64,000 bases of DNA from Stylophora pistillata (taxonomy: Eukaryota), in the NCBI RefSeq assembly GCF_002571385.2, contig NW_019218339.1:1-64000 (forward strand), given 5' to 3'. Both the position numbers and the translations under genes were made by a program. This document shows positions 12,811 through 49,210 of the stretch, piece after piece. The notes below the pieces were generated by a model. That model was not told where the DNA came from, searched no databases, and saw nothing but the letters and a program-made list of their open reading frames with translations. Each line of letters opens with the position of its first letter. Positions within the stretch are counted from its first letter, which is position 1.

Positions 12811-12941
12811 TACATGAGATCATTCATCATACATATATTTCAGTCTCATTTGGCAAATTGGTGGCTTCTTATTCATCAGCTTTGGAACATTTTGATGTAA
12901 GCAGTGAGACAACCCTTTTAGTTATCTTTTTTGTTTTGTAG

Positions 12942-20823: not shown

Positions 20824-20967
20824 TGTCGAGTTATTCAAGAGACAACAGCGCGCTTGCGTTCATAAACTGCCATGTTTTATTCTCCTCCCCATTTCTCCAG
20901 TGCGCATGCCTAAATACCGAACAACACACGCACGTGACACATAAGATCAAAGTTCAGTAACACAACA
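20824..20967. mobile_element. 144-bp solo-LTR-like insertion inside an Ig exon
   Basis: TGT...ACA termini with 5-bp TSD GTGGG (20819-20823 and 20968-20972). Removing it restores colinearity with the paralogous exon at 16445-16701. Confidence 0.7.
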
Positions 20968-22522: not shown

Positions 22523-22526
22523 GTAG

Positions 22527-22781
22527 TTCCCCCAGGTATTGATCATGCTCCATCAGCTTATCAAGTTGTAGAAGGAAATGAGCTGATTCTTTTCTGTAAT
22601 GCCACTGGAAATCCAAAGCCTGACATTACTTGGACTAAAAAAGGAAAAAGCTGTGAACTGCCCACATCAGAGACTCTTACATTAACAAAGCTGACACGAG
22701 AAGAAGATCAATCTATTTACAAATGTGAGGCAAAAAATTATTTAGGATTGACACAAGTCTTTACTAAAATTACTTTCCTTT
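22527..22781 (+). CDS. Gene 1 intact Ig exon (type D)
   Basis: 255 bp, phase 1-1: [29 protein letters not shown]. Confidence 0.7.
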
Positions 22782-25700
22782 GTAAGCTATACACAGTAAA
22801 TATATGTAACATATTTTGAATTCTGTATTGTTTGTACGTGATAATAGTTATACAAAGCAGATGATTCTGTTCCGCTTCTTTTTTTTCGTTATTAACTTTG
22901 TCGTGTGCTCTTGTGTGACATGTTATGATAACGTGGTTTGATCCAAAAAGTCAATTGCATGTCTTTAAATGATTATGTAAAACAAGGTAAAAGAGGAAAT
23001 CTTGATGGATAAAATCCAACCACATTAATAGTGTTACTCCCCCATCCAAGTCAAAGATTAATTAAACCAAGAGCAGCTTCATTTTCCTGAATTCTAATGC
23101 TATTTCGATGATGTCTGCATGTCTTTACAGACCTACTACAACCTCCAATACAACATTGTTCCACTCCAGTAAATGAAGGAGACAATGTAACATTAAACTG
23201 TAAGGGAAATGGTAATCCATCGCCTCGCACAGCCTGGATAACTTAGTCTGGAAAGGTTCCTAGTGACAGGCAGTGATTATGTTACAACAACAATTAACAG
23301 AAGTCAGGCTGGAACATACCAGTGTATGGCGTGGAATGGAATTACGAGAAATGAAATCTCACACTGCACTGTTGATGTTCACTGTAAGTTAACTTTGTAC
23401 TGTAAGACAATAGCTCAGTCTGTTTGTGATGTTTACCCTCCTAGCCCCGGTTATTTGAAGGGTGAATAACACTATCCACTGGATAAAACTCTATCAGGTG
23501 GATATAATCACTGGATAATCGCTGGACAGCGATTTGTCTGGTGGATAGTGTTATCTGCCCTTTATACAACTGGGCCCTGTAAAGTACAACTGCCCTGTAA
23601 AGTACATTCTGGTAATGAAAATCTGATGAACCTTTGTACACTTGGCGGTATTTGTGTTAATAATCATAGTTATTTTTGTTTCTGTCCAAAAGATCCACCA
23701 GCATCAACCATGATTGCAACTGTTCCCACAAACACTATACAGTGCTACGTGGTAGTACATTGGTGCGGAGGTGTGATGTAGAAGGGAACCCTGATGCTCA
23801 TGCTTATAACCTCTACTTTAATGGCAACTTTATCGGTAACAGTAGCTGTGGTGTGTTTAACATCAGTGTGAAGGAAGATGGAGAGTATACTTGTGTTCCT
23901 GTCAACAAATTTGGCATAGGAAGCAATGGCAGTGTCAGTGTGAATGTAGTTGGTAAGTTTGATGAGGAGCAGATTGATAAAGAAATGAATGTTTTGATAC
24001 ATGGAAGGATGCATCCCAAAAAAAAAATGTTGAGAAACTACAATGAGTGATGTATCTCTGGGTTCAAATAAAAAGGTAATCCATGATGTTTGTTTATTAT
24101 ACTTATCCAGTGAGTTTTCTCAACAATAAGGTTTTTCAGGTTTCCCAGAACTCTACTAACTGAAAATTATCTGCACTCTATGTTGGTACTGACTAGGATT
24201 TAAACTGATGCAGTGCCTGATCAATGAGTGAATTATTATTTTTGTCATTGTTTTACTGAGATTCAGATTGACAGTTTTTGTATACATGCATCTCTGATGA
24301 GCTTTATCCTTCTCCCTGATGATCATCTTATCCAGTTCTTTGTCATAACTTATTGCATTCACGATATTTTGTATCAGTGTCCCCAGTTGCTGAGGTTGTT
24401 CTTCAAGCTGGCACAGTTGAGGAAGGTGGAAACATTACCTTGATCTGTAACAGCAGTGGTGTTCCTTCTCTATCTGTTGTCTGGACTCAAGTTGGAACTG
24501 CAAAGGTTTTGTAGGCAGACCAGGGACACCAGATAGCGTGAACCAGTATCAGTATACAGCCAGTAATGGAGTGGGTTCACCTGCTACAGTTGTAGTTAAC
24601 AACTGTTCATTGTGAGTTGATAACTTCATAATTATATATAATTATGTGCTGCGTGGTTATCTGTTAATTGTACCAGTATTGCATTTCATTACGAAAAGGC
24701 TCTGTGCTTGAAGAAGAAGAAGGAGAAAAACAGGAGAAATAGAGGATATTTCATGGCCACTTGGAGATACTGATAACATGTTATTTAAAAAAACACCTTA
24801 TATTTCACACGAGATGATCTTTATTTTCACGCGTGAAAACGAGATCTGTTGGTCGATGTTGATCTTGCTTGAAGGCTTTTTTTTTTTCTGCAAATACATA
24901 CATGTTTCAAATTGTAAGTAATTAGTTACTTTAAAGGTCCTCCAGAGACAGTCAGATATCTCTATCCACGACAGTCGTCACTGAAGGTAGCAATATCAAA
25001 CTTGTCTCCCAAACTACTGGGAATGTATGACCAAATATAACTTGGACTAAGATGGGACGTCGAGGGAACTATCAGTTCGAAATTATTCATCTCATCCATA
25101 TTTGTTCAAATCTACAACAAAGACTCGATCATAGAAAGATGTGTTTCATATACTGTAGGGTTGTGTTTGGGTGTAAAGTGAAGTATCTCATTCTTTTAAT
25201 CTGATCAAATCCTGCAGAGATAGTGACTAATCCTAAAGACCAAGCGTTGAGGATAGGAGAGAAAACAGCTCTATCTTGTGACGCTGTTGGTAAACCTGTG
25301 CCGAACATAACCTTCTCTGGAGAGAATGTCACAGTTGTCCACAGCAAGAAACTTGTTGTCAACAGCTCCCGTATAACTTATTTTAAGATCTACACATGTA
25401 CAGCATTTAATGTAATACAGACACCAGTATCTGTCACTGCGACTGTTACTGTGTTGNNNNNNNNNNNNNNNNNNNNTAGTAAACACCTGCTTAACATCAA
25501 TGTTTGCTTGTCTCGCTTGAAGATGTCCAATAATTGAAATTTTCATCCATTACATGTATTTAAAATATTATTTTCACTCAGAAGGTCTATAACTTTGGTT
25601 GGCATGAGAAAGAGAAAGTGTTCTCTATTAAACACAGTGTCTTTCCAAATTTCTAAAAATGGCTCCTGAAGAGTAAGTTTGAAAAAAGGAGCAAAATGGA

Positions 25701-26184
25701 ACACATATTTGTTAAATGCAAATAGAAGATGCAGGCAGACGGTTCTTCTACGAAGCCAATTAAGATTAATTTCTAAGTGACAACAAATGATCTGACATGT
25801 GTCTATCTAATAGATATACATTTTTCATCACCGTTGACAAGTCATATGTGTGAATAACAAACTTGTTGACAACCAAAGGCCTAGATACAAATCGAAAGAA
25901 ATGGCGTCAATCGATCGTGAAGTTTTTAGCACTCCAAATTTACCGTTAGCCTCCAAAATTGTTTGATTCGCGCTACGTGACGAAATCTGATACTTTTCCT
26001 TATCGGCGACCACAACATTTTGGAGCTATATGTACGAACGAAACTTTGCTTTGAGAATGTTTTATGAATAATAATGATCAGAGTTACGGCGTAAAGGAGA
26101 CAACACAGAACGTTTACCGTGCGACTCGTAAGGTAGGATAACTATAAAACTTTCAGAAGTCCTTAACAGTCGAGTAATACTTAC

Positions 26185-26782
26185 ACTGTACGTTTAACTC
26201 GATAATACTCGGTGATGTGAAGAAACTGCTTCGAAATGAGCACTGGTAGCGAGTGTGATCTTCTTCGGTCACGTTCATAATATTCAAAGTCTTGTCCGTA
26301 ATGAAAATGCGTTGTGGATCATCGTAAATGACTTTGCTTCCAGTCATTGTTGAGTTGATGGCCAATCCGGCCCATTCATCACTGTTATAAGGTTGTTCTC
26401 TGGACCAGGTAAGCAAATGAAATATATCGGCTTGTTGTTGTTCTTGAGGAGTCAGCACATAATCGCATGGGAGTGCAACATTTAAACCAGCGACCACGTC
26501 GATTACATGGTTTGCTTGTTGCTGATAAGACCATTGAAATCCCTCTAAAACCATATAAGCCATTAGTCAGACATAATTCAAACCCGACGGCTTAAGAAAG
26601 TACCGACTACATACGGCAAACAGCTCAATATTAGCGACATGGTTTGAAAGTTTTACCCGCCGCTCGCTTAAAAGATACAATCAAACCAAACTCTGACAAA
26701 ACAAATTTCAACATCACTTACCTAGTAAAACTACACTGTTTAGAAAAAGTAGTAACACCCAGGCGGTATTGGAATCTTCCAT
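26185..26782 (-). CDS. Gene 2: signal peptide plus canonical Ig V-set domain (5' part only)
   Basis: Exon 1 26782-26722 (MEDSNTAWVLLLFLNSVVLL, GTAAG donor). Exon 2 26544-26185 (360 bp: VALPCDY..LLTWSRE..DHTRYQCSF, GTAAGT donor). Confidence 0.8.
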
Positions 26783-28287
26783 TCTTCACGCGATCTTCTT
26801 TAAGAGGAAGTAAGGCATGATCGAAAGCTCTTTGTATATTTATTTGTGTTAGCGACAAACTCTGCGGTCCCTCCTTAACTGACGTCAAACGCTTTCCCGA
26901 GCTATTGTTTAGAACTTTTCAATCATGCATAGATGATTATGTAAGCAACAGGAAATGAAAACATGCCGAGAATGACTGATACTGTTATTTGCTGTACACA
27001 GTGTACATGTTTGTCACTCTCTTGTATGTCTATTTCTGGCTCCAAATTTTTAGCCCCAGCCCTGGGGGACAATCTAAACATCTTGGAAGCCAACTTAACT
27101 GATGGTTTTTTTTTTTTCATTTTTATCCTTAAGTATTTATTTTGTAGTAATCGTTTAAAATGGTTAGCGGGTGGGTTTCGAAAGGAGTGAAAATTGTTTC
27201 TCAAGAATACTTGCAAAATCTAAACAGAAAAAGTCAGGTCGCACAGGTTTTTTTTTTAAAATGTGTAAAATATACGAGGCCGATATTGATCCATATTTGT
27301 CAAGGATCAAGGCATATAACGTTTTTGTTGGAAAATATAAGGTGTAAGGGTTGTCTGTCCAAACAAAATAATAACTGCTGTGGACTGTGTAACATTTGGG
27401 GGTAATTTTAATTGGAAACTAATCGACGACGCTGTGCTGTAGAGATGTCTTACTTTAGCTCGAGGCTGTGTTAATATCAAACAGTGTGCCTAGCTTGAAA
27501 ATTATATGCAAGTTTTAAATTTTGCGAATTTAGCTTGATCCGCAAATATTGGTTTCAAAATACACCGTGAATTAAGACGTCACAAAAAAATTTTTGTTAG
27601 TGCAATGAAAAAACTCGAGGGTATTAACAAGGATAAGTGGCAAGCTATCGGTTAGATTTCTTTGTTGCGTCAAATCTTCTACGAAGTGATCGATTACCTT
27701 CTAAGATTGTACAGAATTCAGTTAACTTTCCAAAATTCTTTTCGCAAATCTCAAAATCGCCAATTTGCAACATGAAACTAGGACAACATTTTCATGCCTC
27801 GGGTAATTATTGTGGGCAAAGCAGTTTTTTTTTTTAGCCTTTCCACATGTTTACCTTTTATGTTTTTCCTTTTGGAACAATAGCAGTAATGTGTGCTTTG
27901 TCTGTAAGAGATTTTAGTGAGACATCTGTGTGATTTCATTTCTCTTGTATTTGTCTCAGTGCGATTGTAAATCTGTGAGTTGGCGATGTCAGAGCGGCCA
28001 TGCCGAGTGAACGACTGAATGCAACGAAAACCAAAGAATTCCTTCATTCATTTGCAATAATTAGAACTAAGTTTTAAGCGGTAGGTTAGATAAGAATATG
28101 CAAGGTTTTTGGACCTTATTATTTTAAAAATAAAGTAGACCTTCATCAAAGATCTGACGTATGTAAACAATGCTTTTCAAATTTGTGCGTCGAAAGAAAG
28201 GAATTGAGATGACTCGGAAGATGATGACTAGCTTTATGAAAAGTGTTTTTGTAATTAATGTTCACAACTTGATTCTGTGGTTAGCAT

Positions 28288-28403
28288 TTTATCCTATTTT
28301 CGCCAGTTAAGGAAATATCAGGTGGCAAAATATTGATTCCACATAATTATCCTATTTTCGACGGTGAAGGAAATATCATGCGGGAAAATATTGACTTCCC
28401 ATA
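28288..28403. repeat. Two-copy ~58-bp tandem repeat in the gene 2/gene 3 intergenic region
   Basis: TTATCCTATTTTCG..AAGGAAATATCA..AAAATATTGA occurs twice. Confidence 0.6.
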
Positions 28404-28830
28404 ATGCTAATAAGTTTTATATATTCCGCAGCCTTGTGTTGCAAGTCATCATGAAGTGTCTCCATCTGGAAATAACACTGAAGGTGTGGTAAATTTTTTC
28501 TTAATATTTCCGGGTAGAACTTTGAATACCCCGCGCGCGTTAAATAGCTCGCGTTCGTCACGCATATGCTTTTCTTGAAAGCGAGCGTCACGGATTAAAT
28601 CCGTGGCGCTCGAGAGAAAAACAAAAGAAAGGGTACCGAAGTTGTCTTTTAGCAGAAGGCACGTACGTACACTGAATCGAGGTGGCCCCGCCTCAGTTGG
28701 ATCGAAAATTAATTGGTTTATGAAAAGATGGTTAATCCGGACGTGTGTAATTCTTGAGTTCTCATTTTCTTAAGGTGAACTTGAACGGCCGCCTCAAGTT
28801 TTAATAAGAACTTCTTGGTCATTGTTGATC

Positions 28831-31800
28831 ATGGATAACTCCCTGACAGTTTGGACGTTTTTTTCGCTATTTTGTGTGTCAGGTAAGGTGCAATGTAATA
28901 CCTCTTAAAACCTATTTTAATAGCCAAGTATCTTTTTTTTCCTTTTACTCACTTTTTAATCCCTCTCATTTTTCGAAGAATCTCTGTCTTGGACCATCAA
29001 ACAGCCCCGCAGTGTATACAGAGGATCACCCATCACACTAGAATGGACAATATCACTAACAACAGAAGAAAGGAAGAGAGCGGATCGCTTTTCTTTGATT
29101 CTCTTGGAACGTGAGAAGTTTCTTTACAGCAATCAGTGGCAGATCATGGCTGTTAAACAGTATTACAATGGTATTTATCAGGAAATCGACAATGAGGACA
29201 CTTTTGATGTGATTCCTGGAAAGGACATGGCACTCAAATTGAACAATGTCACGGACACAGATGCTTCCCGGTTTCGTTGCACATTTCTTAGCTCATTTGC
29301 ATCTCCGAAGAGTATCATAGAGGTGGAAATAGAAGGCGAGTCTTTGTCGTCTGTGGAAGTCTCTACTTTTAGATGTAATAGGTAATCTTTCAGGTGTACC
29401 CCTGACCTACTGCCTNNNNNNNATCATTATCTAACAGGACAGCGGGGTACTCTTCACACTTTTAATTGGGGATGTTATTTCTTTCTTGTTTTAGATTCTC
29501 CGATATACGTACGTCTTATGGACGGAACTACTCCCAATAGAGGCCGAGTAGAAGTGTATCGTAATGGATTTTGGGGCACCATCTGTAGAGACAGTTGGGA
29601 TATTCCGGATGCTTCAGTTGTTTGTCGAATGTTGGGTTACGCGGGAGCCTGGAAAGCTGGCTGTTGTACTGATTATCGGGGTGGGACTGGTCCAGTATGG
29701 CTAAGTGACATTTCATGTACAGGACAAGAGAAGTCTTTATTAGAATGTCGTCACAGTGGTTGGGGTGTCAATAACTGTGATCACAAAAAAGATGCAGAGG
29801 TCGTATGTTACAGCTCGCCAACAGTAAAACCATCTCACTTTTTCAGTGGACAAACCATGTCAGCAAGAACACAAAAATCTTTTTTTTCTAGCACAACAGC
29901 AGTTACATCCACATTGGCTCAGTCTATTTCGACACAGGTGCTTCCACCAATACCCTTCAGTCCAACATCAATACAATTCCAAACCCATATTGTTCGAGTT
30001 ACAGAAGCTATAGACGTATCTCCGAGTTCTTCGTCGTTGGCCGTCATGTCCAGCTCTGTTATTTCGTCCACAAACCCCAGTAAGTAGCCCGTGCAGTCGT
30101 TGTTCCAGCTCATTAACAACTGTCGAAATGCAATCACTTTCCAAGGCTTTGACATGAATATAGACGTTAAGTTGTGTTACCCCTTTGTTGTCAGTGTGGA
30201 ACGGCTCTCGATTAGTAAAATAAGTTAGATTCTGTGATCAATCAGGGACTTCCATGTGAGTGTGCTTAGCATAGAGATTAACCCCCAGAAAATGAAGATG
30301 AGAGGATACAAAAGAACGGTTTGAGGCAGACACTCACCACGCAGTTCTATTTTACAGACATGAACCATTAAATGATAAACAAGTCACTGTTTTATGACTT
30401 AATTGTTGAGCTCAACACCGAATACAAGTAGATACGTGTGAATTCGGCATTTTCGATCACAATATGACTTTTTTAAACAGTTGTGTTTATTGAGCTGCTG
30501 AATGGCGGTGGTCACCCAAATCAAGGTCGTGTTTCACTTTACTACAATGGCCAGTGGGGTACAATATGCCAAGATCATTGGGAGTTGAATGATGCCCATG
30601 TGGTGTGTCGTATGCTGGGATACCCAAGAGCTTTTGACTTTACCAACAGGACAGTCTTCGGTAGTGCTAACGATGGACCAATATGGTTAGATGAAGTCAA
30701 CTGCACGGGAAATGAGAGCACCCTCGCAGCTTGTCCACATGCTGGCTGGGGAAAAAGTAACTGTGATCACAGTAAAGATGTGGGGGTGAAATGTGACTTT
30801 AATTACACTGTGGAGGCAAAAGGTACGGCAATAAGCTAATACGATTATCAGATAATATTTGCAAACCGCAAATTCATTAATTCCTAGAAGTCAGCCAGTC
30901 CGTCAAGCAATCGATTTGTGCTTCGTAAGTTTTTGGTACCTGGGTGTTTCGACAAAGTCTTTAATGTCTGAAACTCTCTCTGCAGATGCAAGTTGCTCAT
31001 TTGACACTTGGTATTGCGGTTGGGAGAATGGACCAGGCAGCCAGGGATTTACATGGACCAGGAAGTTTGGTTCGACGATATCAAGTGAAACCGGACCATC
31101 CCAGGATCACACCTCTGGGAATGGTAAGGGATGCTTCATACCGAGGAATGTGAACGAGTTATCAACATGATGATACAATTAAAAATTTTTCGTGTGTATT
31201 TTAGTGTTAGAAAAAGCTTAGTTTTTGGTTCCACGTTCACGATAAGACGATTTACATTCTTTTATTCGTCGACGGAACTTAAAATCAACCGTTTTTTGGT
31301 TTGTTTGTTTCAGTATTGAATGTGCATGTAACTGTCGGAATCACTGATTGTTGTTTTTTTCTCTCCGCTAGTATCAGTAACTCCACCAACATTATTAATT
31401 GCCTAAGGGATGTCACGCAAAGCTTTTGCGTTACATCCAGGAATGACCATGACCACCCTTATTTCATTGTAGTTCTTTCCCCACTGCAGGTTTTTACTTT
31501 TACATTGAGGCATCTGGACGAAGCATGGGTGAAATTGCTTCACTCGTGTCTCCATATATACGAAGTGATGGAAACACCACGTGTATGGTATTCTTTTATC
31601 ATATGTATGGACAGTCCATTGGTACGCTCACAGTCAAGGCTGGAGATCAAGTTTTGTGGCAGTTGTCAGGCAACCAGGGAAATGCTTGGTACAGGGCAAC
31701 TGTACCCCTTAATTTCAATGCCACTTACAGGGTACGGCAGCTGATCTTTTCACGAACATACGTCACCTGCATGAAGTAAAGTATTTCATGACAAACGATT

Positions 31801-34800
31801 TTTTTCACGTATTTTACTTTATCCTTGTTTGGTTCAGGTGATGTTTGAAGGTGCTGTTGGTAGCACTGCACGCAGTGATATCGCTATCGACGATGTTGAG
31901 TTCCAGGGAAATACAGAGTGCGAGAAGACGGCTGAAACGTTAGGTTAGTGGACCGTTAAACTTCGAAATTATGCCATGGGACTAAAATAATTGTTGGTGT
32001 TACCAGGTACGATGTAAATGTAAAAGAGTTTCAGGTGTAACTAGACTCAGTGTTTTCATTAGTTTCCGCCAAGTGCTTCTGTCCTTGCCTTCTCGCTTAG
32101 AGGCACTGTGTTTGAGTGAAGAAAGCCTTGTTCCCTCAATCCAGAGGTTCGGGCTCAAGAATCGCTGTGATCGCCAGATGGAATTATTTATGGTCAGTTC
32201 AAATCTTCCACCACGCTTTTTGATGGCAGCTTCTTCCTGCCATTTGGTGATTTCGATCGTGTCACGCTTGAATACTATTATTAAATTTTAGTCATTTGAC
32301 GGTTTGTTTAATCAGTGGGCCACAATGAAAACTACCGGGCCACTGGTAATTACAAAGTATTTTTATCAGTAATGGTGTGCAGGAAGGTCAATTTGATGGC
32401 ACCGCACTTGTTAGACCCTTGGAAATTACCTTTCTTGATTAAAACTCACGGTCTCAAATATAATTTGGAAAGCTCGAACGAACGATTTTCAAAGATTTAG
32501 TTCCTCTTTGTTGGCATACATTCGCTCATATTCTCATTCTCTTTCCTTGTTTTCAGTCCCACCAAAAATCGTGTGGATTTCCCCAAATCGAACAGCTGAA
32601 CTTGGCAGTGAGGTTACGTTAGTATGTACCGTAATTGGTCTCCCCACACCACGTGTGATATGGAAGAAAAATAGAAGAGTTCTTTCGGGGAGTCAGGTGA
32701 CTGGTAACGTCACTCTACTGAATATCTCTCAGTCCGATATTGGCAGTTATGAGTGCTGGGCAGCTAATGATGTGGGCACTGACACCAGAGCTACAGTACT
32801 CGACGTTTTAGGTTGGTGGATTAATTTTTTTCTTGACTATTCCGGAGTGAATACATTGAAATTGCGTACATTTGATGAATCAGAAGTAGCATTGTTAAAA
32901 CTCAGACGAGTTGTGAACTTAGCAAATTTGAGGGCTCATTAATTTTGAATACCCAGAAAAGCAAACGTACTCTCCTCTACTTCTACAGAACGTTTTGAGT
33001 GTCTGGGAATTGCAAATAGTTTGCAGTAACGGGGCTGTTCTCTTTTTTGGAATGACCTATGCAAAGTGCTGAAACTGTGAGTGTTATGGATGAGAAGCGC
33101 AATCCAGACCAGATTTTCTCTAGCTTAGTTATTGTTCCCCAATCTAAAGATGGACATTCTATGAAATTAACTTCTCTTGTTTCATTCTCTGAAGGATCTC
33201 CGATGAAAATAGTAATCACCAGCAACGCGTCTTCGAATGTGGCAATTTAGGGGGACTCTGTTGCCATACGGTGCTGGTCATATGGCTACCCTGGTCCACT
33301 CTGTCACATATATCGCGAGGGTAATTTACTAGGCGCAAATAGAGGTGTTTATGTTATTGAAAACTTCACTACTTTGGATCAAGGAGTCTACATTTGCAAC
33401 TGCTCTAATGTCGCTGGTGCAGCGCAGGCAAACTTTTCCCTCGCTCTTTATAGTAAGTGGCTTGATGATTAGATTCGTTTTCTTAGTACAAACAAGTGGG
33501 AGAATAGTTGACTCCAAATGGCTTATAGTTGTTTTTTAGTATATCTAGTGTGTTTACTCGAGTCCTAAAATGTCATCCGTAGTAACATTGTTAACCAATG
33601 ATAATGATAATAATCAACTTATTTACGGAAGATAACCGTCAAAAGTATTTCAACTGATGAGCAAGTGGTCCTCTATCTTAAAGCCAAACTGCAGCATGCA
33701 ATGTGGAACTGGAAGGGAAAGGTCCAAGACTTACTTTTTACCTTACAGAGTCCCCAGCTATCCACACCATTTATCCAGCCTATCAACTTGTGAACGAAAC
33801 TGATGCATTTGAATTTTTCTGTAATGCGACGGGAAATCCAACCCCGACAATAACATGGTGGAAAATTGGCGACACTAGCAAAGTATATTCCACAGAACCA
33901 ACACTGGCAATACAAAATGCTTACAAATCAGACTTTGGCAGCTACCGATGTACCGCAACAAGTATTCGCGGTGAAAACGTGTCAGCTGTTGCGCGGGTGG
34001 AGATGGATAACTGTGAGTAGAATTTCTGATAATACGATAGTCACAAGATAGAACATGTTCTGGCTTAGACGGAGGCGAAAATTCATCGTGAGCCTTACGT
34101 CAGTTAGATTTGGGCGTTAACATCGATTTATACAGGTAAACAATATGATAAAGAAAGAAATGATAGTGTATCACCAAAGTAAATAAGACGGCAGAGTTTA
34201 AGTTGGGCGCAAATTATCAGTGCCTATAACGGTGTTTGTCAGTTAATGCACTCTCCCCCTCCTTCCACCCCTCCCCAATGATTTACTCCTCCTCCCAACC
34301 CCCCTCCCGAATGATTCACTTTGTATCAGAACAGTATCTGATATGCTTAAATATCAGTAAGGAAAAGCATCAACCTTGATGGCGACTGATAATGTTTTTT
34401 TTTCGAAGAAGTCTTTCAAAGCCACTGCGTGATCTGATTTTCAAGATTTGTGTTTTTACATGTTTGTAGTTTCGCCGACAGTCGACTACATTTGCTGTAA
34501 CGTGACTATTTTGGAAAAAGAAAGAAGAAATGTTACAATGTACTGTAATGCCACAGGAAGACCAGCGGCTCAGCTGTCCTGGATAAGAGTTGTAGATGGT
34601 AAAACATTGGTCACTGGGAATACTTTAGTAATCACAGCTGCTGGTCGGTCGCATCGTGGTGAATACAGATGCGTCAGTGATAATGGAGTGCGGAATCCTG
34701 TGTCCAAGTCGGCATACGTGAACGTGCTTTGTAAGTTCAGAAAGTTTCTTGTTGAAGTCACCTAGGCAATTATTGTTCGAGGTGTCTTTCTCGTGAGTCA

Positions 34801-37800
34801 AGCTTCACTTCAAATGCTCAAAGACCACAGCTTAAAAAGGAGAATATATGTTTTCCACAGCATCATCGCCTAAACTCCCACGGGACTTTTTTCGCATTTT
34901 GCAGTTACCAAGAATGTTGAGTCCTTTTTTCACATTTTGTCCATTCTATTTAAAGACGCAGCAAATGCATCATCTGAGAACGAGAATCGTTTATTTCATA
35001 CTAACGAAATGGTGGGAAACTACACGACGATTAGTATTGTCCGTACTTGAAACTTGACCAAGTTCTTTCAAATTAAGTCAGTTAATGTTAATTCAGTAAG
35101 TTAAGACAAGCTCTGGACATATTCTCGTATTTATATTCACCACACACCAAAAAGCGTCTGTTAGAGGAGGTGTACTGTTTGCCTAAAATCAAAATCTCAA
35201 TTTCTCTCTTTTCCTAAAGATAATCCAATAACCACAAGATTAACAACCGATAAATTAAATGCAGTGGTGCTAGGAAATGGTCGCATTGCAATGACTTGCA
35301 TAACTGATGCCAACCCACCGCCAAGTCAATACAAGTTTTATCGTAATGGTGTCTACTTAAGGACAAGTCTTACAAGAGTGCATGTTATTCACAAGGCCAG
35401 ATATTTTGACGCAGGAACCTATATGTGTGTACCAATCAACAGGCTTGGCTTTGGTTCAAACGGCTCTGTCCAGGTTTCGGTGATTGGTAAGTAAGACCAG
35501 CTCTTGCACTTTCAGTCGCCATAACTTTAGGCGACTCGAAGCGACTCAACTGATTTAAGTACAATATTTCCGAAATTTCACGCGACGTGAGGCGACTTAA
35601 GTAGGCCTCAAGCAACAAGCACAGCATCAAAAAGTCATCCACCTGGCGTTGTGTCCATGGTATTTTGATTTGTGCAGAAATACAGAGAAACTAGTCCTAA
35701 GCTTGTGGGTCATTGACCTGCTTTGTCGTCAAGTCTTCAAAGAAATAAAGAGAACTGCGATCTAAATTCCTCCAATGTTTGTCAACAGGTGCTTTTTCTA
35801 TCATGCACTTCCCACGGAACATGACTGTCAACGAAAGTGCACGTGTGTCATTTTTTTGTAATGCTACTTCTTATGCCCCATATGGGAAATTTGCTCCTCA
35901 AATCTCTTGGAGTAAGCTAAGAGACAAAAGCAAAGTATTCCCAGCAGGTGAACAGCTCGTTATGAGGAATGTTAGTAGATACGATGGAGGTACATACATC
36001 TGCACAGCTAGGAACGGAGTTGGGCTTCCTGATACTAAAACGGCGGTGCTAAGTGTGTTACGTGAGTAAAAACATTTGACATTATGAAAAAATGATTGTC
36101 TTTAGTAACCAACCAATTTGATTGAGTTGCTGAACCGGTTGTTACTATATTCTGCAGATAAACCATATGACACTAAGCTTGGGGCATCAGTTCCAGACAA
36201 TATTGCAGTATTAAACTCATCAGTGGTATTAACTTGTAGAGCAAAGGCCAATCCACCGGTTACATCCTATAACATTTATCACAATGGCATCTTAGTGTCC
36301 AATACATCCAGTGGTATTCACAACATCACGCACGCTCTGGCTGAAGATAATGGATCATACGTCTGTATACCGCACAACGAGTTTGGTGAAGGCGAAAAGG
36401 CAGCTTTGAACGTGTCTTTTGTGGGTATGTTAAGACTCTCAGTTATGAATCCGTCCTTTATGTCCAAAGAGTTTTGAATGACCAGTATTACTTGAGAACA
36501 TGTTAACTAAACTGAACAATCCGGTTATAAAAAACGAGCTATCTGTAAATTCCATAGAAATTCGTTATTATCTTGCTTTTGGCTAACGCACTTAGTTGCA
36601 CAAAAGAACTCAGTTAGAAGCATTATTGTCTCCTGTAATATAATTGGTTAATTTTGTCGTAGTAGCCCAGTGATAGTAATAGCCTCACATACTGAGCGTC
36701 TGATAGTTTTCAAACATAGGAACTGTCTTCGAGAATAATATTGATTGAGAAGAGTTATAATTAAGCTACCACTTAGACATACGCATGATGCACGATCCTC
36801 GCAGTAGATAGCGCTATTTATGCAATAGCGAAAATCAGACCTGAAAAAAATCAGGCCTGTACGGAACTCGAACCACGGACCTCTGCGATACTAGTGCAGC
36901 GCTCTACCAACAGAGCTAACAAGCCAACTGGGAGCAGGCCGTTAAGTTGATTCGTAATAAACCCGTGAAAGTGATAAATGAGAAACAATGAATATATGAA
37001 GTTCATATATTTTGAACTGCGGTATTAGATACGTATGATGCACGATTCTCGCAGTACATAGCGCTGTACAGGCCTGATTTTTTTCAGGTCTGATTTTCGC
37101 TATTGCATGGTGCTATCTACTGCGAGGATCGTGCATCATACGTATCTAATACCGCAGTTCAAAATATATGAACTTCAAATATTCATTGTATCTCACTTAG
37201 ACATAGTGCATGCCCAGAAAGATAATGCAAGTTTGGCTGTTTTTCCAAACAGGACCTTGTGGCGTTAAACGCGTGCATCATACCTGGTCGCCGCAGATTG
37301 TGGCAGGAGCTAAAGCTAAACCAGGGGAGTGGCCATGGCAGGTCCAGCTCGGATACTTTGACAAAACCGATAGCATCCCTCATCTTTGTGGTGGCTCCAT
37401 CTTGGATCACTACTGGATTGTCACGGCTGCACACTGTGTAAAAAGTGAATTTGGTAAAAAAACCCCCGCCAACTTCAATGTCACTGCTGGTAAGCCCTTT
37501 TTAGTTGGTACGAGTGTTTGTTATCCATACGGTAGAACACAGCCACTTGACCTCCCCAAAATTACAACCTCTTGCTACTAATAATCGAAAGCTTTGTCTT
37601 TTCATTAAGCCCGGGACACAGTTATATCGGAATGTTCTGACAATTATAGTATAGCTTCTAGTAGTCTAGTAATGTTACCTATTTACGATAGTAGCGTCAG
37701 TTTTGTTAACGTGATTGACCAAGACGCTTATTGCAACGAAATTTTATGGCTCAAGCATAGTCATTTTAAACTAAAGTGTGCAAGATTACATTCTCAAAGG

Positions 37801-38529
37801 ATTGAAATTTTGAGCTGGGATGGGGGTGGGGTGGGTGGGTGGTTGGGATGAGTAAGGTAGTGGAGAAGGAGTCTCAACATGCCTTCTCCCTTTGGGAAAT
37901 TTCCAGCGGGACTCTAGTATACATGCTCATAGGTATGACCACTGACCACTGGCCTGTTCCTTTCATCGTCAGGTGAACTCCACAGAGGGGTCAGTGAAGG
38001 AAGAGAGCAAACTGTTCCTATAGAAAAGATAATTGTGCACGAGAATTTCGACCAAAAAACTTTACAAAATGATATCGCTTTGATGAAGCTCCGGACACCA
38101 ATCTTCTTTGATGCGCATGTGTCGCCAATATGCCTTCCAAACTTTGATTTTGACGACGGTACCAAGTGTTACGTCACCGGCTGGGGTCGTACTGGACCTC
38201 TTAGTTCGACGCCAAACATTCTTCAAGAGACTTTAATTCCTCTTGTAGCTCACAGAGTTTGTCAACTGTATTACAAACAGAAAAGAGTTAATAATGTAAC
38301 GTCAGATATGCGCTGTGCTGGAACCCTGGGTCAGAGTCGAGGTACATGTAAAGGTGACAGTGGTGGACCGCTGGCCTGTGAGAGAGACGGCCGTTGGTAT
38401 TTGATGGGAGTTACAAGTTGGGCAAATGAGGGCTGTATGCACAGCGGTGACCCGGGAGTCTTTTCAGATGTCTTGTACTTTAGGAGCTGGATTGAAGAAG
38501 TCATGAAGAACAATACAAAGGCAACATAG
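28831..38529 (+). CDS. Gene 3: secreted mosaic serine protease SP-IgV-SRCR-(S/T linker)-SRCR-MAM-Ig x7-S1 protease (~1486 codons, one in-frame TAG)
   Basis: Exons 28831-28882, 28979-29335 (GC donor), 29495-30079, 30481-30822, 30986-31123, 31490-31731, 31838-31943, 32557-32811, 33195-33452 (TAG at 33248-33250), 33749-34012, 34470-34730, 35220-35486, 35789-36061, 36158-36424, 37253-37489, 37973-38529. Phases are consistent (sum 4461 nt). No transmembrane segment seen. Confidence 0.88.
28979..29335 (+). CDS. Gene 3 exon 2: atypical Ig V-set domain (Trp at B-strand Cys position)
   Basis: [27 protein letters not shown]. Confidence 0.8.
29495..30822 (+). CDS. Gene 3 exons 3-4: two SRCR domains separated by a Ser/Thr/Pro-rich linker
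   Basis: [42 protein letters not shown] and [34 protein letters not shown]. Confidence 0.92.
30986..31943 (+). CDS. Gene 3 exons 5-7: MAM domain
   Basis: [56 protein letters not shown]. Confidence 0.92.
32557..36424 (+). CDS. Gene 3 exons 8-14: seven Ig (I/C2-set) domains, one per phase-1 exon
   Basis: Each exon is 255-273 bp with C..(W/Y/H)..DxGxYxC-type motifs. Confidence 0.88.
36779..37199. mobile_element. tRNA-derived SINE-type repeats in inverted arrangement (intron 14 of gene 3)
   Basis: Minus-strand tRNA-like head at ~36860-36930 (TAGCTCTGTTGGTAGAGCG..GGTTCGAG). ~36779-36862 and ~36975-37060 are inverted relative to ~37066-37199. Confidence 0.7.
37253..38529 (+). CDS. Gene 3 exons 15-16: chymotrypsin-fold (S1A) protease domain, intact triad
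   Basis: CG..WSPQ|[29 protein letters not shown]. Confidence 0.95.
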
Positions 38530-42175: not shown

Positions 42176-43081
42176 CTAAACGGCTGTGTTGTTTCTCATA
42201 ACTTCTTCAATCCAATTTTTGAAATGAAGAGTATCGGAAAATACTCCAGGGTCACCATTGTGCATACATCCTTCGTTTGTCCAACTTGTAACACCCATTA
42301 AATACCAGCGGCCGTTTCTTTCACAGGCCAGCGGCCCACCGCTGTCTCCTCGACACGTGCCTCGACTCTGACCCACAGTTCCCGCGCAGCGCATGTCTGG
42401 TGTCACATTTTGTATTCCCACGTAATGGTTTTTGCATACTGTGTGGTTCATCAGTGGTACAGTGGTCTCCTGAAGAATGTCTGATGGGGAACCCAAAGGT
42501 CCCAGATATCCCACCCAGTAACATAACAACTAGTACCGACATCAAAGTCAAAATCTGGAACGCAGATCGGCGACACGTGAGGACCAAAGAGAATGGGTTG
42601 CTGCATTTTTATCAACGCGATGTCATTTTCAAGGTCAATATCATCGAAGTTCTCGTGTAAAATTATCTTCTCTACAGGTATGTTCTGCTCACTTCCTTCA
42701 TTAATACCCCTGTGAAGCTCTCCTGAAGATTTAAAAACATCCCGTGAGTGAAAGAGCATCGAATAAAATTTTGAAATATCCAAACTAGACCAGAGAGAGC
42801 CTTCTCAGCTCCATTCGAGCAATCTAATTTATTTAAATCCTTACCAACAGTGACATTAAAATTGGCTGGGGGCTTTGCTTGAAGCTCGCGTTTCAGACAA
42901 TGAGCTGCAGTAACAATCCAGTAATGATCTAAGATGGATCCACCGCAAAGATGAGGGATGCTTTCGGTGTTGTCGGAGTATCCCAGCTGGACCTGCCACG
43001 GCCACTCTCCTAGTTTAGCATAAGTTCCAGCCACAATCTGCGGTGACCAGGTATGATGGACACGTTTAGCACCACAGGGTC
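42176..43081 (-). CDS. Gene 4 protease domain (frameshift between catalytic Asp and Ser)
   Basis: WSPQ|IVAG, TAAHC and NDIAL are in one frame; GTCRGDSGGP is in another after GGG TGG GAT (expected GGG TGG GGA). Confidence 0.85.
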
Positions 43082-43302
43082 CTGTTTCAAAAAAGAGAAA
43101 ATGATACAATGACCTAAAAACAATCGCACACTGAGGAAACTTTGTGATACTCTGCAATCCACTTAGTGGTACCATTTTCTTTCCTTTAAAGCCAAATTGT
43201 TACGTTGAATAATTCTGAATAATTATTTTCTCATCACAATTTGCCATCCGCCGCGCCTATCGAAAAATACTATCAACACTCAAAAAGTCGCAAATAACAC
43301 AC

Positions 43303-46300
43303 CTGTAAAAGACACGTTCAAAGTTGCCCTTTCGCCTTCCCCAAATTCGTTGTAAGGTATGCAGACGTACGATCCATTATGTTCAGCTAGGGTGTGTGTA
43401 ATGTTGTGAATACCAGTGGATGAATTGGACACTAGGATGCCATTGTGGTAAATTTTATACGACGTAACCGGTGGGTTGGCTTTTGCAGTGCAATTCAAGA
43501 TCAGTGATGAGTTAACTATTGCCACGTTATCTGGAATTGATGCCTCCAGCCTGGTGTCGTATGGTTTATCTGCAAAATAGAAATAAATAACAATCGTAGT
43601 GAGTATTACTCACACATGCCGTTACATTTCTATTGGTATTCATGGTACATCGGATGGTACCGTGAAACCCTGTTACATGTACATTGAGGATGTTATGTAC
43701 GTTCTTCCTCCTTTTTGAAACCAAAATGTAGAGCACCAAACTCAGACCTAGATCCAATTAACTCGATATCGAATTACACTAAGTTAGAGAACAGCTGAAT
43801 GCAAACTACTGGATCCCACGACAGAGCAAGTTTATACTTACGTAATATATTCAGTACAGCTCCTGCAGTATCAGGAAGACCAAGTCCGTTCTTAGCTGTG
43901 CAAATGTACGTTCCTCCGTCGTATCGACTCACATTTTGTATAACAAGCTGTTCACCTGGCGGAAATACTTTACTGTTGTCTCCGAGTTTACTCCATGAGA
44001 TCATAGCGATAAGTCGGTCATACGGAGCAAACGAAGTAGCATTACAGAAAAAAGACACACTTGTGCTTTCGTTGGCGGTTATGTTTCGTGGAAGAGAAGT
44101 GATCGAGAACGCACCTGAAAAAAAAATTAAATAAATTGGATTACACTATCACCTCATTTACTAAAAATCTCCCGTCGATAATAATCACGCTTTGCGGATT
44201 CAATCCTGTTTTCACATTTCTCGAGTTACTTTCAAATCAGAAGGTCCTAGAGTCATCCTCAAGTGAAATATTTACTCATTCATATGTCAATTACTTACCA
44301 ATGACATCAACCTGGGTGGTGCCGTTATAACCGGAGCCAAGAGTGTTGAGTGGTACACATAGGTAGGTTCCTGCATCTAAATATTTGGCCTTCTGAATAA
44401 TATATACTCCGCTGAGACTGGTTCTAAGGTAGATACCGTCACGATAAAACTGATATTGACTTGGAGGGGGGTTCGCATCAGTTATGCACGTCAAACCAAT
44501 GCGACCATTTCCAACGACTACTCCATTTAGTTTGTCGGTTGTTAGTCTCGTCGATGAAGGATGATCTTGAAAAGAAAGCAATATATATTTTACAATACCA
44601 GGAGAGGTAAGATTTTGTTTGATATTAAATACTATCTAAAAGTAGAGTATTTTCAACCACATTGTCTTCGAGGAAATAACTGAGCTGAGTCTCGGGGCTA
44701 AAGCCTAAATTGTCAGAGCATGAAACCTCCATAAGTAAACATTTACTGCGGTGCGACTTGGTTGAAATCAGTCTCGGTAAAATAGAAACAGGTGCATTTT
44801 GCTACTTCCGTTCTCTTTTTGTTGACGATTTAGAAATGTGATACTACAAACTTCTATAGCAGTAATCCCAGATTCATTGAAAAATGATAAAAAAAATTTC
44901 ATTTTACAATTTCAAAGTGCCAGAATATTCCTAACTTACAAAGCACGTTCAGATATGCTGATTTATAGACAGGATCTCGCACTCCGTTATCGGCTACACA
45001 TCTGTATTCACCCCGATGTGATCTGTCAGCGGCTGAGATTACTAGAGTTTTTCCCGAAGCCACTATTTTTCCATCTCTGACTCTTATCCAGGACAACCGT
45101 GGAGCTGGTTTCCCTGTGGCGTCACAGTGCAGGGTAACATATTTTCTTTCCTTTTCCATGACAGTAATGTTTTGTGGACTTTGGACAATACTCGCTGCAG
45201 CTACAAATTAAAAGAATTAAATATCATAAGTCATTGGATATTAGCTTCCCTCAGATACCTTCAAAAACTAACCATACCTCTGAGAGAGGTTTGTTTGTTT
45301 GTTACATTAACAAGGCCAATTTTTAAACCACAACTCAAAATCAACTTACAGTTGTCAACTTCCACCAGTGCATCAGCTGAAACATTCTCACCCCGCTCGC
45401 TCACAGCTGTACATCGGTAGCTCCCAAAGTCTGATATCTGAGCATTTGTTATCCTCAGTGTTTGTCCTGTATAATTTACTTTGCTTGTGTTGCTTAGTTT
45501 ACTCCATGTTATTGCCGGGGTTGGATTTCCCGTCACATTGCAGAAGATTTCAAAAGTGTCCGTTTCATTTACAAGCTGATAGGCTGGATGAATGGCGGTG
45601 ATATTTGGAGATTCTAAAAGAAAGAAAGTGAATAGATGTGAAATTTTGAGAGTTTTCGTGATCAAGTTGTAATTCATACGTAATTTAAGAGACCAAATAG
45701 GAAAGTTTTTCTTCTATATTGGCTATATGCAATAGAGGGCTTCTCATTTCTGAGAGTTCTCACCATAAAGAGCAAGTGTAATATTCGCCTTCTTCACACC
45801 AGCAACATTAGAGCAGCTCCACAGGTAGTGTCCTTGATCCACAGGGGTGAAGTTTTGAATAACATATACACTCTCATTGATGTTAAATGAGTTATCCTCT
45901 CGCTGAATTCGACAGACTGGAGTAGGATAACCATTAGACGAGCACTTTATGACAACAGCATCACCAAGGGCGACCGCACTGAAAGAGATGTTGGCTGTAA
46001 TCGTCGTTTCCCTGAGATATCCTACAAAGCGATCATCATTATTTTTCATACGTCAATGGGAAGAAAACTATTGTTAAGGAAACCTCGTTTAGAATTAGTG
46101 GTTAACTGATGCGCTCAGAGATCCTCTACATGAACTGATCCATCATCTTCCTTAGTTCCAACGGGTGCCAAAACTTATTTAACGGTATAAATCATGTAAA
46201 AACGATAACAGTTCAGTAAAGGGAATGAAAATCATGTCATAATAGACCTCTTTAGCTTGAAAGTTTTTTTCTACCTATTTCAGGTCTAAATAATGGCATA

Positions 46301-46705
46301 ATTTACAAAAGAAAAAGCTAGAATTCCCTAAAAGACCGGTATAATTACATAAAGGCATTTTTGATCACTACAAAAAAATTACTAATGAAAAAAAGGAGAA
46401 GAAAAAAACACTCAAAAACGTTTGGTGGGGTTGAGAGCCTAACCATTTACCTTCAACTTTGAGCTCCATTGTTCTTGATTCAGTAGCCAAATGATTGCTT
46501 ACTGAGCACTCATAAAATCCGCCATCTGCTTGAGAGATGTTTAGTAAAGTGATGTTACCAGTCACCTGACTCTCATTGAGAACCTTACCATTTTTCCTCC
46601 ACACAATGGTAGGTTGAGGGCTACCAATCGCGGTACAAACTAGTGTTACGTTGCTTCCAAAGTAGGCTGTTTGATTCGATGAAATAGATATGATTCTTGC
46701 TGGAA
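43303..46705 (-). CDS. Gene 4: seven Ig exons
   Basis: Lengths 255, 258, 264, 261, 267, 273 and 267 bp equal those of gene 3 exons 8-14. Confidence 0.88.
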
Positions 46706-47118
46706 CTAAAAGTTAAAGAGATTTGTTCATGTTGTCGGTTTCAAACATAGTGGCTTTCGCAAATTCATAGGAGCACCATCGTCGGTCAAGCGTGTAGCTA
46801 AAACACTGATCAAATGTGCGAAAACTATGAATACGAGATTAATCTCGCTACTTGATAGAAAGGACGTCAATTAATACTGTAAACACCTCGGTCACAGGGT
46901 TCTACTAAATTACCATAACAGATACAATAAGGTGCACCGCTTTTGGTTGTGTAATATTCTCTTGATGTTACTAAAAATGAGAAAAAGAAGGATTTGCAAA
47001 CTAACAAAACAAGTTTTCTTCTATCAATTATTTGGAATGGCACCACTTCGTCTCATGCGACCAAGTTAAAACTCTGTGTAACCTGTTCAGTCACAATTTT
47101 ACTGGCAGAGGTTATTAC

Positions 47119-48791
47119 CTAACGTTTCGGCTGTCTTTTCGCACTCTGTATTTTCCTGGAACTCGACATCGTCCATAGCGATATCACTAAATGCAGTACT
47201 ACCAACTACACCTTCAAACATCACCTTCAAATAAGTAAGAATAATGAAGACATCAAAAATCCAATTATTTGAATCTATCACTTGTAAATTTTCCAAAACA
47301 TAAAATTATACCAGTAAGTAAATAGGGTCTGTACACGATGTGATCGTGTGGTCTAATCGGCCGGACGACTGTAGTCCTGAAAAGGACTGCTGTTCGTAAA
47401 CATTTCAACAACCTGTAGCAGAACTGGTCATCATACTGAACTGAAGGACTATTGCGAGTAGAGAAATGTAAGTCGAGTCCGTTTCAAACCGATCGGCCAG
47501 TTTGCCATAAAGTTGTTGACACTGCGGCTTACATAGATCTTGATTGGTCTGTTTCGATCCGTCGTTCCGTTCGGTTTGACTGTTGTGTAAATATCGCGAA
47601 TAGGTTGTTTGATTGCTGCCAGTAGTTGTTGAGATCTGTTGAGTAGAGTCATTGCTTAGTTACTGAGCCAGCTTTCCAGAGTCTATCGTCGAAAGTACTT
47701 CAGTCATGCTGAAGGTTAAGCTTTGTACAGACTCCAAGTTAATAGATTGGTTTGTAAGTCGATAATGTTCAGCAATGTGACTGTCGACGTGGCCTTTTCT
47801 CGTCGCTCGTTGTGTTAACCCAGTCTTTTGTTCAGTTTCCTGCCGATCAGTCCGATAGAGGAGGCTCTGCAGTCTAGGCAGATCTTGAAAACTGCTCCTT
47901 ATGAAGTATTGAGTAATCGGTCTGTTAGCGACGTGGACATTGTAAGAATGTAGAATCCGCGAGATAGTTTTAAACATGAGACTTCACGATCGAGTGTTTC
48001 TCTCGTATTCAAACTATTAACTGTCTGGTCTCCATACACCTACAGCTGCATGTAGTGCTTTCATAACAATTACAAAGGAATAACTTCGCTTGCGGCAATA
48101 CATTACTTGTTTGTTTTAATTTTGTGGATCACTGAAAAAGTAAAACTATCTTACCCTATAGGTGTCGTTAAAATAAAGAGGCAATGTCGCTTTGTGCCAA
48201 TCGTTTCCCTGGTTGCCTGACAGCTCCCACAAAACTTGATCCTCAACCACCACTCTGAGTGTATGAATAGACTGCCCATACATATGATAATAGAACACCA
48301 TACACGTTGTGTTTCCATTGCCAGCTATGTTTGGAGACTCTATTGTCGAAACGTCACCGACGGTTTGTCCGGAGGCCTCCACGTACACGTAAAATCCTGC
48401 AATAAAAGCGTGTAGGGTATTGATCTATCTATCTGCAGGTAATGCAGTGGACTATATGGCTAAATAAATTTGACCCTCTATTTAAAAGTATACCCTAGAA
48501 TAGCGACACCTTAAGTTTAAAACGATTTTAAAAATGGTGCAGCACTTTTTGGAAAACTCGCTGAAAATTTTTTTAGAAAATGACTACTCGTAACGGATTA
48601 CGTTTCTCAGCATAAAACATCGCAGGAGAAGAGAAAACACCAACCGTTCTTACCAAATCCAGAGGTGCGATCTTGAGAGGGCCCTGTGTTGTCTGTTATA
48701 GTTGGACCAAATTTTCTTGTCCATGCGGGACCCGACCTGTCCGCTGAAGTTTCCCAGCCACAATACCAGATGTCAAAATTACAACTTGCAT
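47119..48791 (-). CDS. Gene 4: MAM domain (3 exons)
   Basis: CNFDIWYCGW..YVEASG..CMVFYYHMYG..SDIAMDDV; exons of 138, 242 and 106 bp as in gene 3. Confidence 0.9.
47335..47990 (-). mobile_element. Degenerate Penelope-like fragment (same family as 2909-3998), intronic in gene 4
   Basis: ISRILHSYNVHVANRPI..RATRKGHVDSHIAEHYRLTNQSI matches the 3071 ORF. A pLTR-like GTAGTCCTGAAAAGGACTG is at ~47370. Confidence 0.75.
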
Positions 48792-49210
48792 CTGAAAAAG
48801 CAATTCCGTTGCTTACAAACGTTGATGATATGAGCTAAACGGAAAAGTAGTACTAACTCTTGTGTAAACTGAGTGCAATAGTGTTCTCATCCTAAACGGG
48901 TATCTTAGGACGTCATACTGCACGATTTAATAAAGGACAGATGAAAAGACCATATTTCCTGTTTTATGTTCGAGATTTTAATCAAATTTCAGTTGATGGG
49001 GAATAGAATTAGAGGCTAAATGGGTTGGTCAGAAGATTTTATTCCTCGTGTCTATCAGTTCAAACATATAGCGAACATTTTTCTTTTTATAGCTTGTCAA
49101 AAAGGCTTATTTTTACCAGAGAAAGATGCTTCTTCGGTTCTTTACATACCACTGTCACACCCAACAAAATTTAGAAGTTATTGTAGCGATTACTAACATG
49201 ACAATCTTAC

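Follow-up and report, generated by a model that had tools for sequence, protein, structure and literature searches.

We analysed 64,000 nucleotides of the coral Stylophora pistillata (NCBI RefSeq assembly GCF_002571385.2, contig NW_019218339.1, positions 1 to 64,000 of the forward strand), referred to below as the window. It is a cluster of immunoglobulin (Ig) genes, namely gene 1 (+ strand), which is a degenerate Ig array, gene 2 (−), gene 3 (+), gene 4 (−) and gene 5 (+). The subject here is the V domain of genes 2, 3 and 4, for which a first-pass annotation, made from the letters alone, had claimed homology in spite of different cores. Judged from their sequences, sister V domains of opposite core chemistry are a real feature of this locus, one on a likely adhesion receptor (gene 2) and the other on a likely secreted protease (genes 3 and 4). 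RNA splicing is seen for all three genes, and the peptides that the annotation had quoted for their V exons are present where it placed them.

The V-set exon of gene 2 occupies 26185..26544 on the minus strand, as identified by Pfam, a structure model and an orthologue match. Its core is the canonical C26-W46-C101, encoded by TGC at 26467, TGG at 26407 and TGC at 26242, and corresponds to the Cys23, Trp41 and Cys104 that form the Ig pin. The Pfam V-set profile scores it with E 1.2e-5 and 25.9 bits, just below the cut-off of 26. The coding part of the signal-peptide exon, a hydrophobic leader of 20 residues, is at 26722..26782 (−), and two RNA runs support the splice joint 26544/26722 between the two exons with 67 and 48 reads. 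Gene 2 V is 97% identical to the V domain of a full-length orthologue, P0001, which is a protein of 383 residues with the layout signal-V-Ig-transmembrane-tail. Reads leave the V exon (67 and 29 reads) for an exon that is missing from the letters of the window and encodes the residues that follow in P0001. Because of this splicing, gene 2 can be neither a lone secreted V domain nor a mis-oriented 5′ end of gene 1, and both candidates were ruled out.

According to reads and contigs, a 20-N assembly gap at 25457..25476 (no strand) likely hides the I-set, transmembrane and tail exons of gene 2. RNA contigs extend 100–197 unmatched letters on both sides of it, and since they continue past both edges, the gap most likely holds the downstream exons. 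It conceals far more than 20 bases, likely with the end of gene 1 among them as well. These exons were not found elsewhere in the genome assembly, which is incomplete, using the full protein, the tail protein or a 30-base pattern.

Gene 2 is conserved. Its V domain is 66–97% identical in 19 of 19 homologue matches, and the Nematostella orthologue XP_032218573 (‘A33 antigen’) is 41% identical in V and keeps Cys-Trp-Cys. Compared between families, against Acropora, the identity is 70% for the V domain and 59% for the I-set domain. The tails of all 11 orthologues examined, Nematostella included, end in S/T-x-I/L/V; a C-terminus of S/T-x-hydrophobic is the class I PDZ-binding pattern. Databases have automatically named the orthologues V-set, CXADR-like, VSIG1-like or A33. 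From this architecture, gene 2 is a conserved receptor of V, I-set and transmembrane parts, with a likely role in adhesion. In the Montipora and Acropora orthologues P0011, P0014 and P0015, one to several near-identical tandem Ig repeats stand between the V and the last Ig domain, and their number differs by species and isoform.

The V-set exon of gene 3 lies at 28979..29335 on the plus strand, as assigned by alignment, a structure model and profile comparison, and its core is W23-L43-C101 (TGG at 29044, TTG at 29104 and TGC at 29278). It is preceded by a signal-peptide exon at 28831..28882 (+), whose leader is connected to it by a GT-AG joint in 3 reads and one RNA contig, and is followed by a GC-AG intron, 29336–29494, whose 159-base joint is used in RNA (6 and 3 reads and one contig). 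The rest of gene 3, at 29495..38529 (+), codes for two SRCR domains, a Ser/Thr stretch, a MAM domain, seven Ig exons and a serine protease with intact His, Asp and Ser motifs. These downstream exons were assigned by open reading frames and by tblastn to P0053, P0076 and P0078, with Pfam run on the orthologue P0076. An intron of gene 3 contains a 228-base imperfect inverted repeat at 36975–37199.

Gene 4 and gene 3 are inverted duplicates, with 70–89% likeness exon by exon in self-BLAST. The V-set exon of gene 4 at 53780..54136 (−) has the core W22-V42-C100, is 70% identical to gene 3 V and is spliced to an SRCR exon in an RNA contig. Its signal-peptide exon at 55548..55602 (−) has a leader and a GT-AG intron and is in frame with the V exon; the signal-to-V junction is absent among the RNA joints listed. 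Self-BLAST and spliced RNA place the remainder of the gene, with six SRCR domains, a MAM domain, seven Ig exons and a serine protease, at 42176..53385 (−). The frameshift at 42509 is an assembly error, because an extra base is carried there by 19 of 31 and 9 of 11 reads and by both contig sets, and a pseudogene status of gene 4 was ruled out. A very high-copy short repeat lies in a gene 4 intron at 52400–52600.

The protease domains lie at 37207–38529 (gene 3) and 42176–43199 (gene 4). Both have the motifs AAHC, DIAL, GDSGGP and IVAG, that is, the catalytic triad and the activation N-terminus of S1A proteases, and Pfam Trypsin matches an orthologue with E 6e-61. Residue 189, as numbered via the conserved Cys191 and Ser195, is Gly in genes 3 and 4 and in three coral orthologues, and Ala in Nematostella, so that Asp189 is found in none of them. 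The activation junction is Pro-Gln followed by IVAG, and Pro-Met/IMGG in Nematostella. Tryptic specificity is unlikely because of Gly189 and the Pro-Gln/IVAG junction; the proteases are probably non-tryptic and possibly self-activating. No transmembrane segment was found in the orthologues of genes 3 and 4, and their proteins are likely secreted. The protease layout is kept in Acropora, Oculina, Pocillopora and Nematostella. The V domain is 54% identical to that of Acropora and 42% identical to that of Nematostella LOC5509856, which has the core Trp-Phe-Cys on a V-MAM-SRCR-MAM-Ig-protease chain.

The claimed homology between gene 2 V and the V domains of genes 3 and 4 holds. Gene 2 V and gene 3 V align ungapped from the A′ strand through the C′ strand, with 33 of 107 residues identical (31%, E 1e-15) and a local score of 136, compared to 27 ± 5 and a maximum of 53 in 2000 shuffles. 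Profile-profile comparison gives a probability of 99.3% and brings W23/C26, L43/W46 and C101/C101 into the same columns. As annotated, then, genes 3 and 4 have Trp in the B-strand Cys column itself and not away from it, Leu or Val at the C-strand Trp, and an F-strand Cys left without its pin partner, which is the only Cys in each of these V domains. With W-L-C and W-V-C they depart from the Cys23/Trp41/Cys104 pin, and their fold is V-set even so, as modelled for gene 3. Gly16 and the E–F Asp (Asp98) are present, residue 102 is Tyr in gene 2 and Phe in genes 3 and 4, and the E-strand Leu of genes 2 and 3 is Phe in gene 4. Pfam V-set gives no match for genes 3, 4 and 5.

AlphaFold2 models, a check that the annotation had proposed, were built for gene 2 V and gene 3 V from 16-row alignments. 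The best values of the predicted local distance difference test, or pLDDT, are 88.5 for gene 3 V and 84.1 for gene 2 V, with other models down to 63.9 and 32.4. Both are modelled as V-set domains, with a V-frame β-sandwich that includes the C′ and C″ strands and with a 9-residue helix in the B–C loop. W23 of gene 3 falls within strand 19–26, the strand after the Gly16 turn. The best match of the gene 3 V model is an antibody V domain (Z 13.3, root-mean-square deviation 2.5 over 110 residues), and TIGIT scores Z 12.8. The top matches of the gene 2 V model are CAR D1 and nectin-1 D1, with a template modelling score of 0.76–0.77, and sodium-channel β4 is also among them. By this register, Trp would fill the core in the protease V domain. 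A role of the free F-strand Cys as an inter-chain linker appears unlikely, because it sits in the normally buried Cys104 column. Sequence searches of the PDB with two profiles (A3 and A5) returned partial Ig matches only, and neither profile aligned with a solved V domain at the level of residues. In the ESM Atlas, the Nematostella receptor V has V-set clusters and CAR among its top structural rows, and the Acropora protease V has mostly unnamed clusters with no family agreement.

The annotation had treated the gene 2 core as canonical and the W-L-C core as rewired. Both core states do occur in one family, but Trp at the B strand is the common state and gene 2 the exception. In the 398-Mb genome, 16 V exons with a readable B strand were found, a lower bound that excludes fragments, and Trp is present in 15 of them and Cys in gene 2 only. 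A profile search over 1.84 billion representatives, pooled with other fetched proteins, yielded 97 distinct full-length V domains, of which 38 are C-W-C, 1 is C-F-C and 58 have Trp at the B strand. Of the 38 C-W-C rows, 36 are gene 2 relatives with much redundancy among them, and fish supply the other 2. The Trp-at-B cores are varied, W-W-C, W-I-C, W-F-C, W-W-I and W-W-F among others, and since W-W-C rows exist, the C-strand Trp need not be lost in compensation. The F-strand Cys is retained in all 13 rows of the protease clade. Elsewhere in the genome, V exons with Trp-Trp-Ile/Phe (L025–L036, on contigs C189, C455, C198, C583, C668, C833 and C2161) have expanded; they head hemicentin-like receptors and receptor tyrosine kinases, with 23 matches including fragments.

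Gene 2 V is closer to the V domains of genes 3 and 4 than other coral V domains are. Among the coral V groups sampled, reduced at 90% identity to 61 rows, the best cross-group match of each gene 2 clade row is in the protease clade (12 of 12) and that of each protease clade row in the gene 2 clade (13 of 13), with a mean of 52 bits versus at most 31 for other groups. The 61-row tree, built on all columns, supports the joint clade with 89/92. Without the three core columns, support is 98/94 (LG+G4) and 99/95 (C20) in a hand-picked 42-row set that includes 8 bilaterian-type outgroup rows. The clade appears in 928–983 of 1000 bootstrap trees over four LG+G4 taxon sets, three reduced sets among them giving 928–971. 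On these trees, the gene 2 V and protease V families are sisters, and by their Nematostella members both reach back before the anemone–coral split.

The remaining two genes of the cluster differ from these. Gene 5 (59020–64000) has a V domain without the pin cysteines, then Ig repeats, FN3 and a transmembrane segment. Its V exon at 59214..59579 (+) is a more distant family member: it has Trp at the B strand, lacks the C-strand Trp, carries Leu in the column of the F-strand Cys and has two Cys elsewhere, which may link the F and G strands. A possible Nematostella relative of gene 5, P0232, is on a record of the same length as that of the gene 2 orthologue. Gene 1 (10400–25456) is a tandem series of Ig exons interrupted by many stop codons and frameshifts. 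Transcription reaches a depth of 20–55 at its 3′ end, with introns retained, and the gene is probably a transcribed pseudogene.

Building on the observed order of domains, the splicing, the V-set fold, the swapped columns and the sister relationship, we propose that gene 2 is a CAR/A33-type junction adhesion receptor and that genes 3 and 4 are secreted protease zymogens carrying the sister V domain as a docking tip, with no need for the two to bind each other. We give this reading as a whole a probability of about 0.58. One V exon would have been duplicated and shuffled onto a protease before sea anemones and stony corals separated. In the protease V domain, the B-strand Trp likely occupies the space of the missing disulfide and the shrunken C-strand residue, and the F-strand Cys would be left as a buried free thiol. 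The gene 2 receptor likely binds another receptor of its own kind via its GFCC′ face and likely anchors to a PDZ scaffold via its S/T-x-hydrophobic C-terminus. The V domain of genes 3 and 4 likely serves as the docking tip; the protease would attach to a surface via V, SRCR and MAM and be activated by cleavage before IVAG. The adjacency of genes 2 and 3 would then result from their shared origin and from the Ig-gene cluster.

Several points weigh against this proposal. The similarity of gene 2 to vertebrate CAR is weak, with a profile E of about 1e-6, and orthology to CAR is not established. Both proposed roles, adhesion and docking, were deduced from architecture together with what is generally known of CTX family members. 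Both V clades retain Glu, Trp and Ser-x-Phe at positions that appear to belong to the GFCC′ face, in keeping with a shared interface. Finally, receptor and protease have long remained adjacent, across Acropora and Pocilloporidae, and genes 2 and 3 overlap in antisense; a functional or regulatory link would account for this too. In Pocillopora damicornis, the two are neighbours (pdam_00019990 and pdam_00019992, with locus tags two apart and the same record length), and in Acropora millepora their records have the same length. Two Acropora muricata models, P0049 and P0054, have protease and receptor fused head to tail in one chain. This fusion is probably an annotation read-through; a genuine one would tether the protease to the membrane. 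In the window, genes 4 and 2 still stand head to tail, and gene 3 has been inserted as a copy in inverse orientation. Transcripts of gene 3 begin at or before 26130 and splice over the first exons of gene 2, which is on the other strand (3, 5 and 4 reads plus one contig). The 5′ untranslated exons of gene 3 (26130–28772) begin inside the second intron of gene 2, and the first two exons of gene 2 lie antisense within a gene 3 intron, as seen in few reads.

One form of such a link, anticipated in part by the annotation, would make gene 2 the membrane dock to which the proteases of genes 3 and 4 bind V to V, a heterophilic contact of the kind known from CAR-JAML and nectin-TIGIT that would focus proteolysis at cell contacts. 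It is suggested by the sister relationship of the two V domains, their invariant residues, the coral neighbourhoods, the overlapping transcription and the presence of transcripts of genes 2, 3 and 4 in the same RNA runs. In Nematostella, however, going by record lengths alone (17.3 and 13.7 Mb), receptor and protease are on separate records, so that adjacency is not required there. The region is moreover a cluster of Ig genes (genes 1–5 here, adjacent accessions in Montipora), in which neighbours arise by duplication. Homology by itself does not imply binding, and the receptor V (70% to Acropora) and the protease V (54%) do not display tight co-conservation. We regard docking onto gene 2 as unlikely. 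More remote is the idea that the locus is the coral counterpart of the Hydractinia Alr complex, with Trp-for-Cys V domains as Alr-type self markers. The Trp at the B-strand Cys column and the lost C-strand Trp do match Alr domain 1, the V-I genes are clustered, and gene 5, with no pin cysteines, has an orthologue (P0081) of V-(I)n-FN3-transmembrane layout, a partial likeness to Alr. Yet genes 3 and 4 keep the F-strand Cys, lack a transmembrane segment and end in a protease, and the gene 2 V domain is more conserved between families than its I-set domain. V domains differ by only 0–4 residues among 10 members of the gene 2 cluster and 2–6 among 16 members of the gene 3 cluster, counts that exclude 5 listed members without a V domain and come from 90% clusters, which cannot show more divergent alleles. 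Reads at 95% likeness list only two substitutions near the coding exons of gene 2. Within those clusters and reads, high polymorphism of the Alr type is not seen in V, and an Alr counterpart is very improbable.

A separate question, one of history only, is the direction of the Cys/Trp change. On the best trees, Trp-bearing anthozoan domains surround the gene 2 clade, which requires a minimum of two B-strand changes, Cys to Trp and back. The codons are one base apart (TGC and TGG here), and the retained F-strand Cys would be an immediate partner for a regained B-strand Cys. The trees favour re-acquisition of the gene 2 Cys from TGG to TGC without proving it. Alternatively, gene 2 retains the ancestral Cys-Trp-Cys, and Trp arose once, which would place the root on the branch of gene 2, or on several occasions by the one-base change TGY to TGG. 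Retention implies at least three independent Cys-to-Trp changes on the best trees, by our own reading, versus two steps for gain and reversal, and the grouping of outgroup plus gene 2 clade appears in only 0–8 of 1000 bootstrap trees in four runs. On the other hand, the approximately unbiased (AU) test rejects that grouping in none of five runs (p 0.095, 0.055, 0.089, 0.117 and 0.227), the alignment has only 120 columns with distant, long-branched outgroups, and the Trp-Trp-Cys rows P0131 and P0148 are a natural intermediate from Cys-Trp-Cys to Trp-Leu-Cys. The choice between reversal and retention is about even: retention has an even chance, and reversal taken alone a little below that. A broader scenario, which we hold doubtful, is a large hidden anthozoan V-set family of Alr-like ancestral core Trp-x-Cys, in which gene 2 rebuilt Cys-Trp-Cys and became a convergent CAR-like junction receptor that docks the sister-domain protease; reversal and docking together are improbable. 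If true, it would make the ‘invariant’ Ig pin switchable both ways, in a family that bridges the canonical V-set and Alr domain 1.

Irrespective of direction, alignable relatives present the cores Cys-Trp-Cys, Trp-Trp-Cys, Trp-Leu/Val/Ile/Phe-Cys, Trp-Trp-Ile/Phe and Trp-x-Leu, two of which stand side by side here at 31% identity. The origin and dispensability of the Ig pin therefore become testable by single-residue swaps in small domains, in what is a natural series for loss or regain of the pin, with functions being inferred. The locus also reveals a CAR/A33-like receptor whose PDZ-type tail is shared between sea anemone and stony corals. On a known cnidarian SRCR-Ig-protease, it reveals an N-terminal V domain missed by Pfam. 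The automatic V-set, CXADR and A33 names of the orthologues and the protease layout were already on record. No published account of the receptor–protease V pair or of coral Trp-for-Cys V domains was found in the open-access literature.

Compared with the CTX family (CAR/CXADR, CLMP, A33/GPA33, VSIG1, JAM and ESAM), gene 2 has the same series of signal peptide, canonical V, second Ig domain, single transmembrane segment and PDZ-type tail, and P0001 and its orthologues display the full layout from V to the PDZ-binding C-terminus. The best match of the gene 2 V model to CAR D1 and the CTX-type automatic names are further likenesses. The second domain of CTX members is of C2 type with an extra disulfide, whereas that of gene 2 scores as Ig_2/I-set and has two Cys only in P0001. 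The extra tandem Ig repeats of the Acropora and Montipora orthologues and the predicted B–C loop helix are further differences. The R-x-E dimer motif, which is of the JAM kind, is not seen in C′ of gene 2. In a tree with few vertebrate CTX sequences, the gene 2 clade groups with anthozoan V domains and not with the fish CAR-like row. V-set folds that are stable without the pin disulfide are familiar from CD2, CD58, the SLAM family and the CEACAM N domains; none of these is known to combine a B-strand Trp with a single retained F-strand Cys.

Genes 3 and 4 share the SRCR-Ig-protease layout of the cnidarian ‘SRCR + Ig + trypsin’ proteins described earlier (Neubauer et al. 2016, PMC5119243). The passages seen of that paper mention neither a cryptic N-terminal V domain nor a kinship to a neighbouring receptor, and ‘trypsin’ probably does not describe the specificity of genes 3 and 4, given Gly189 and Pro-Gln/IVAG.

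As for Alr, the annotation's mention of a B-strand Trp in Hydractinia Alr domain 1 is correct (PMC9546547), but the likeness is incomplete: both pin cysteines are missing from Alr domain 1, and the F-strand one is kept in genes 3 and 4. In that paper (Huene et al. 2022, PMC9546547), Alr domain 1 has Trp, Phe or Tyr at Cys23, the two cysteines are absent throughout and the Trp survives in two sequences only; its authors knew of no other V-set domain outside bilaterians and considered the reason for the pin loss unclear. V-set Pfam matches are listed in a sponge paper (PMC5400394), and the passages shown of a review of anthozoan immunity name no coral Alr homologue (PMC7563517). No Alr protein appeared in our homologue-search results or among 150 listed representatives, which are listed without names. 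Of the Alr domain 1 traits, an aromatic residue at Cys23 is found as Trp in genes 3, 4 and 5, with Cys in gene 2, and absence of Cys104 is found in gene 5 and not in genes 2, 3 and 4. The Alr layout of V-I-I-Fn3-like-transmembrane is matched neither by gene 2 (V-I-transmembrane) nor by genes 3 and 4, and gene 5 is the better Alr look-alike at the locus. The Alr proteins are membrane proteins, with Alr1/2 highly polymorphic, whereas the products of genes 3 and 4 are conserved proteases that lack any transmembrane segment. A helix is placed between C″ and D in 17 of 29 Alr models (PMC9546547), as against the B–C loop in the gene 2 and gene 3 V models. Alr domain 1 and the V domains of genes 3 and 4 nonetheless have in common a V-set fold without the B–F disulfide, Trp at Cys23, a hydrophobic residue for the C-strand Trp, a tyrosine corner with Phe and a fold largely missed by Pfam V-set, so that two of the three core changes are common to both and the third, loss of Cys104, is not seen in genes 3 and 4. 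The kinds of structure met at this locus, a V-set domain, a CTX-like receptor, a cnidarian SRCR-Ig protease and an Alr-like core, are each already known.

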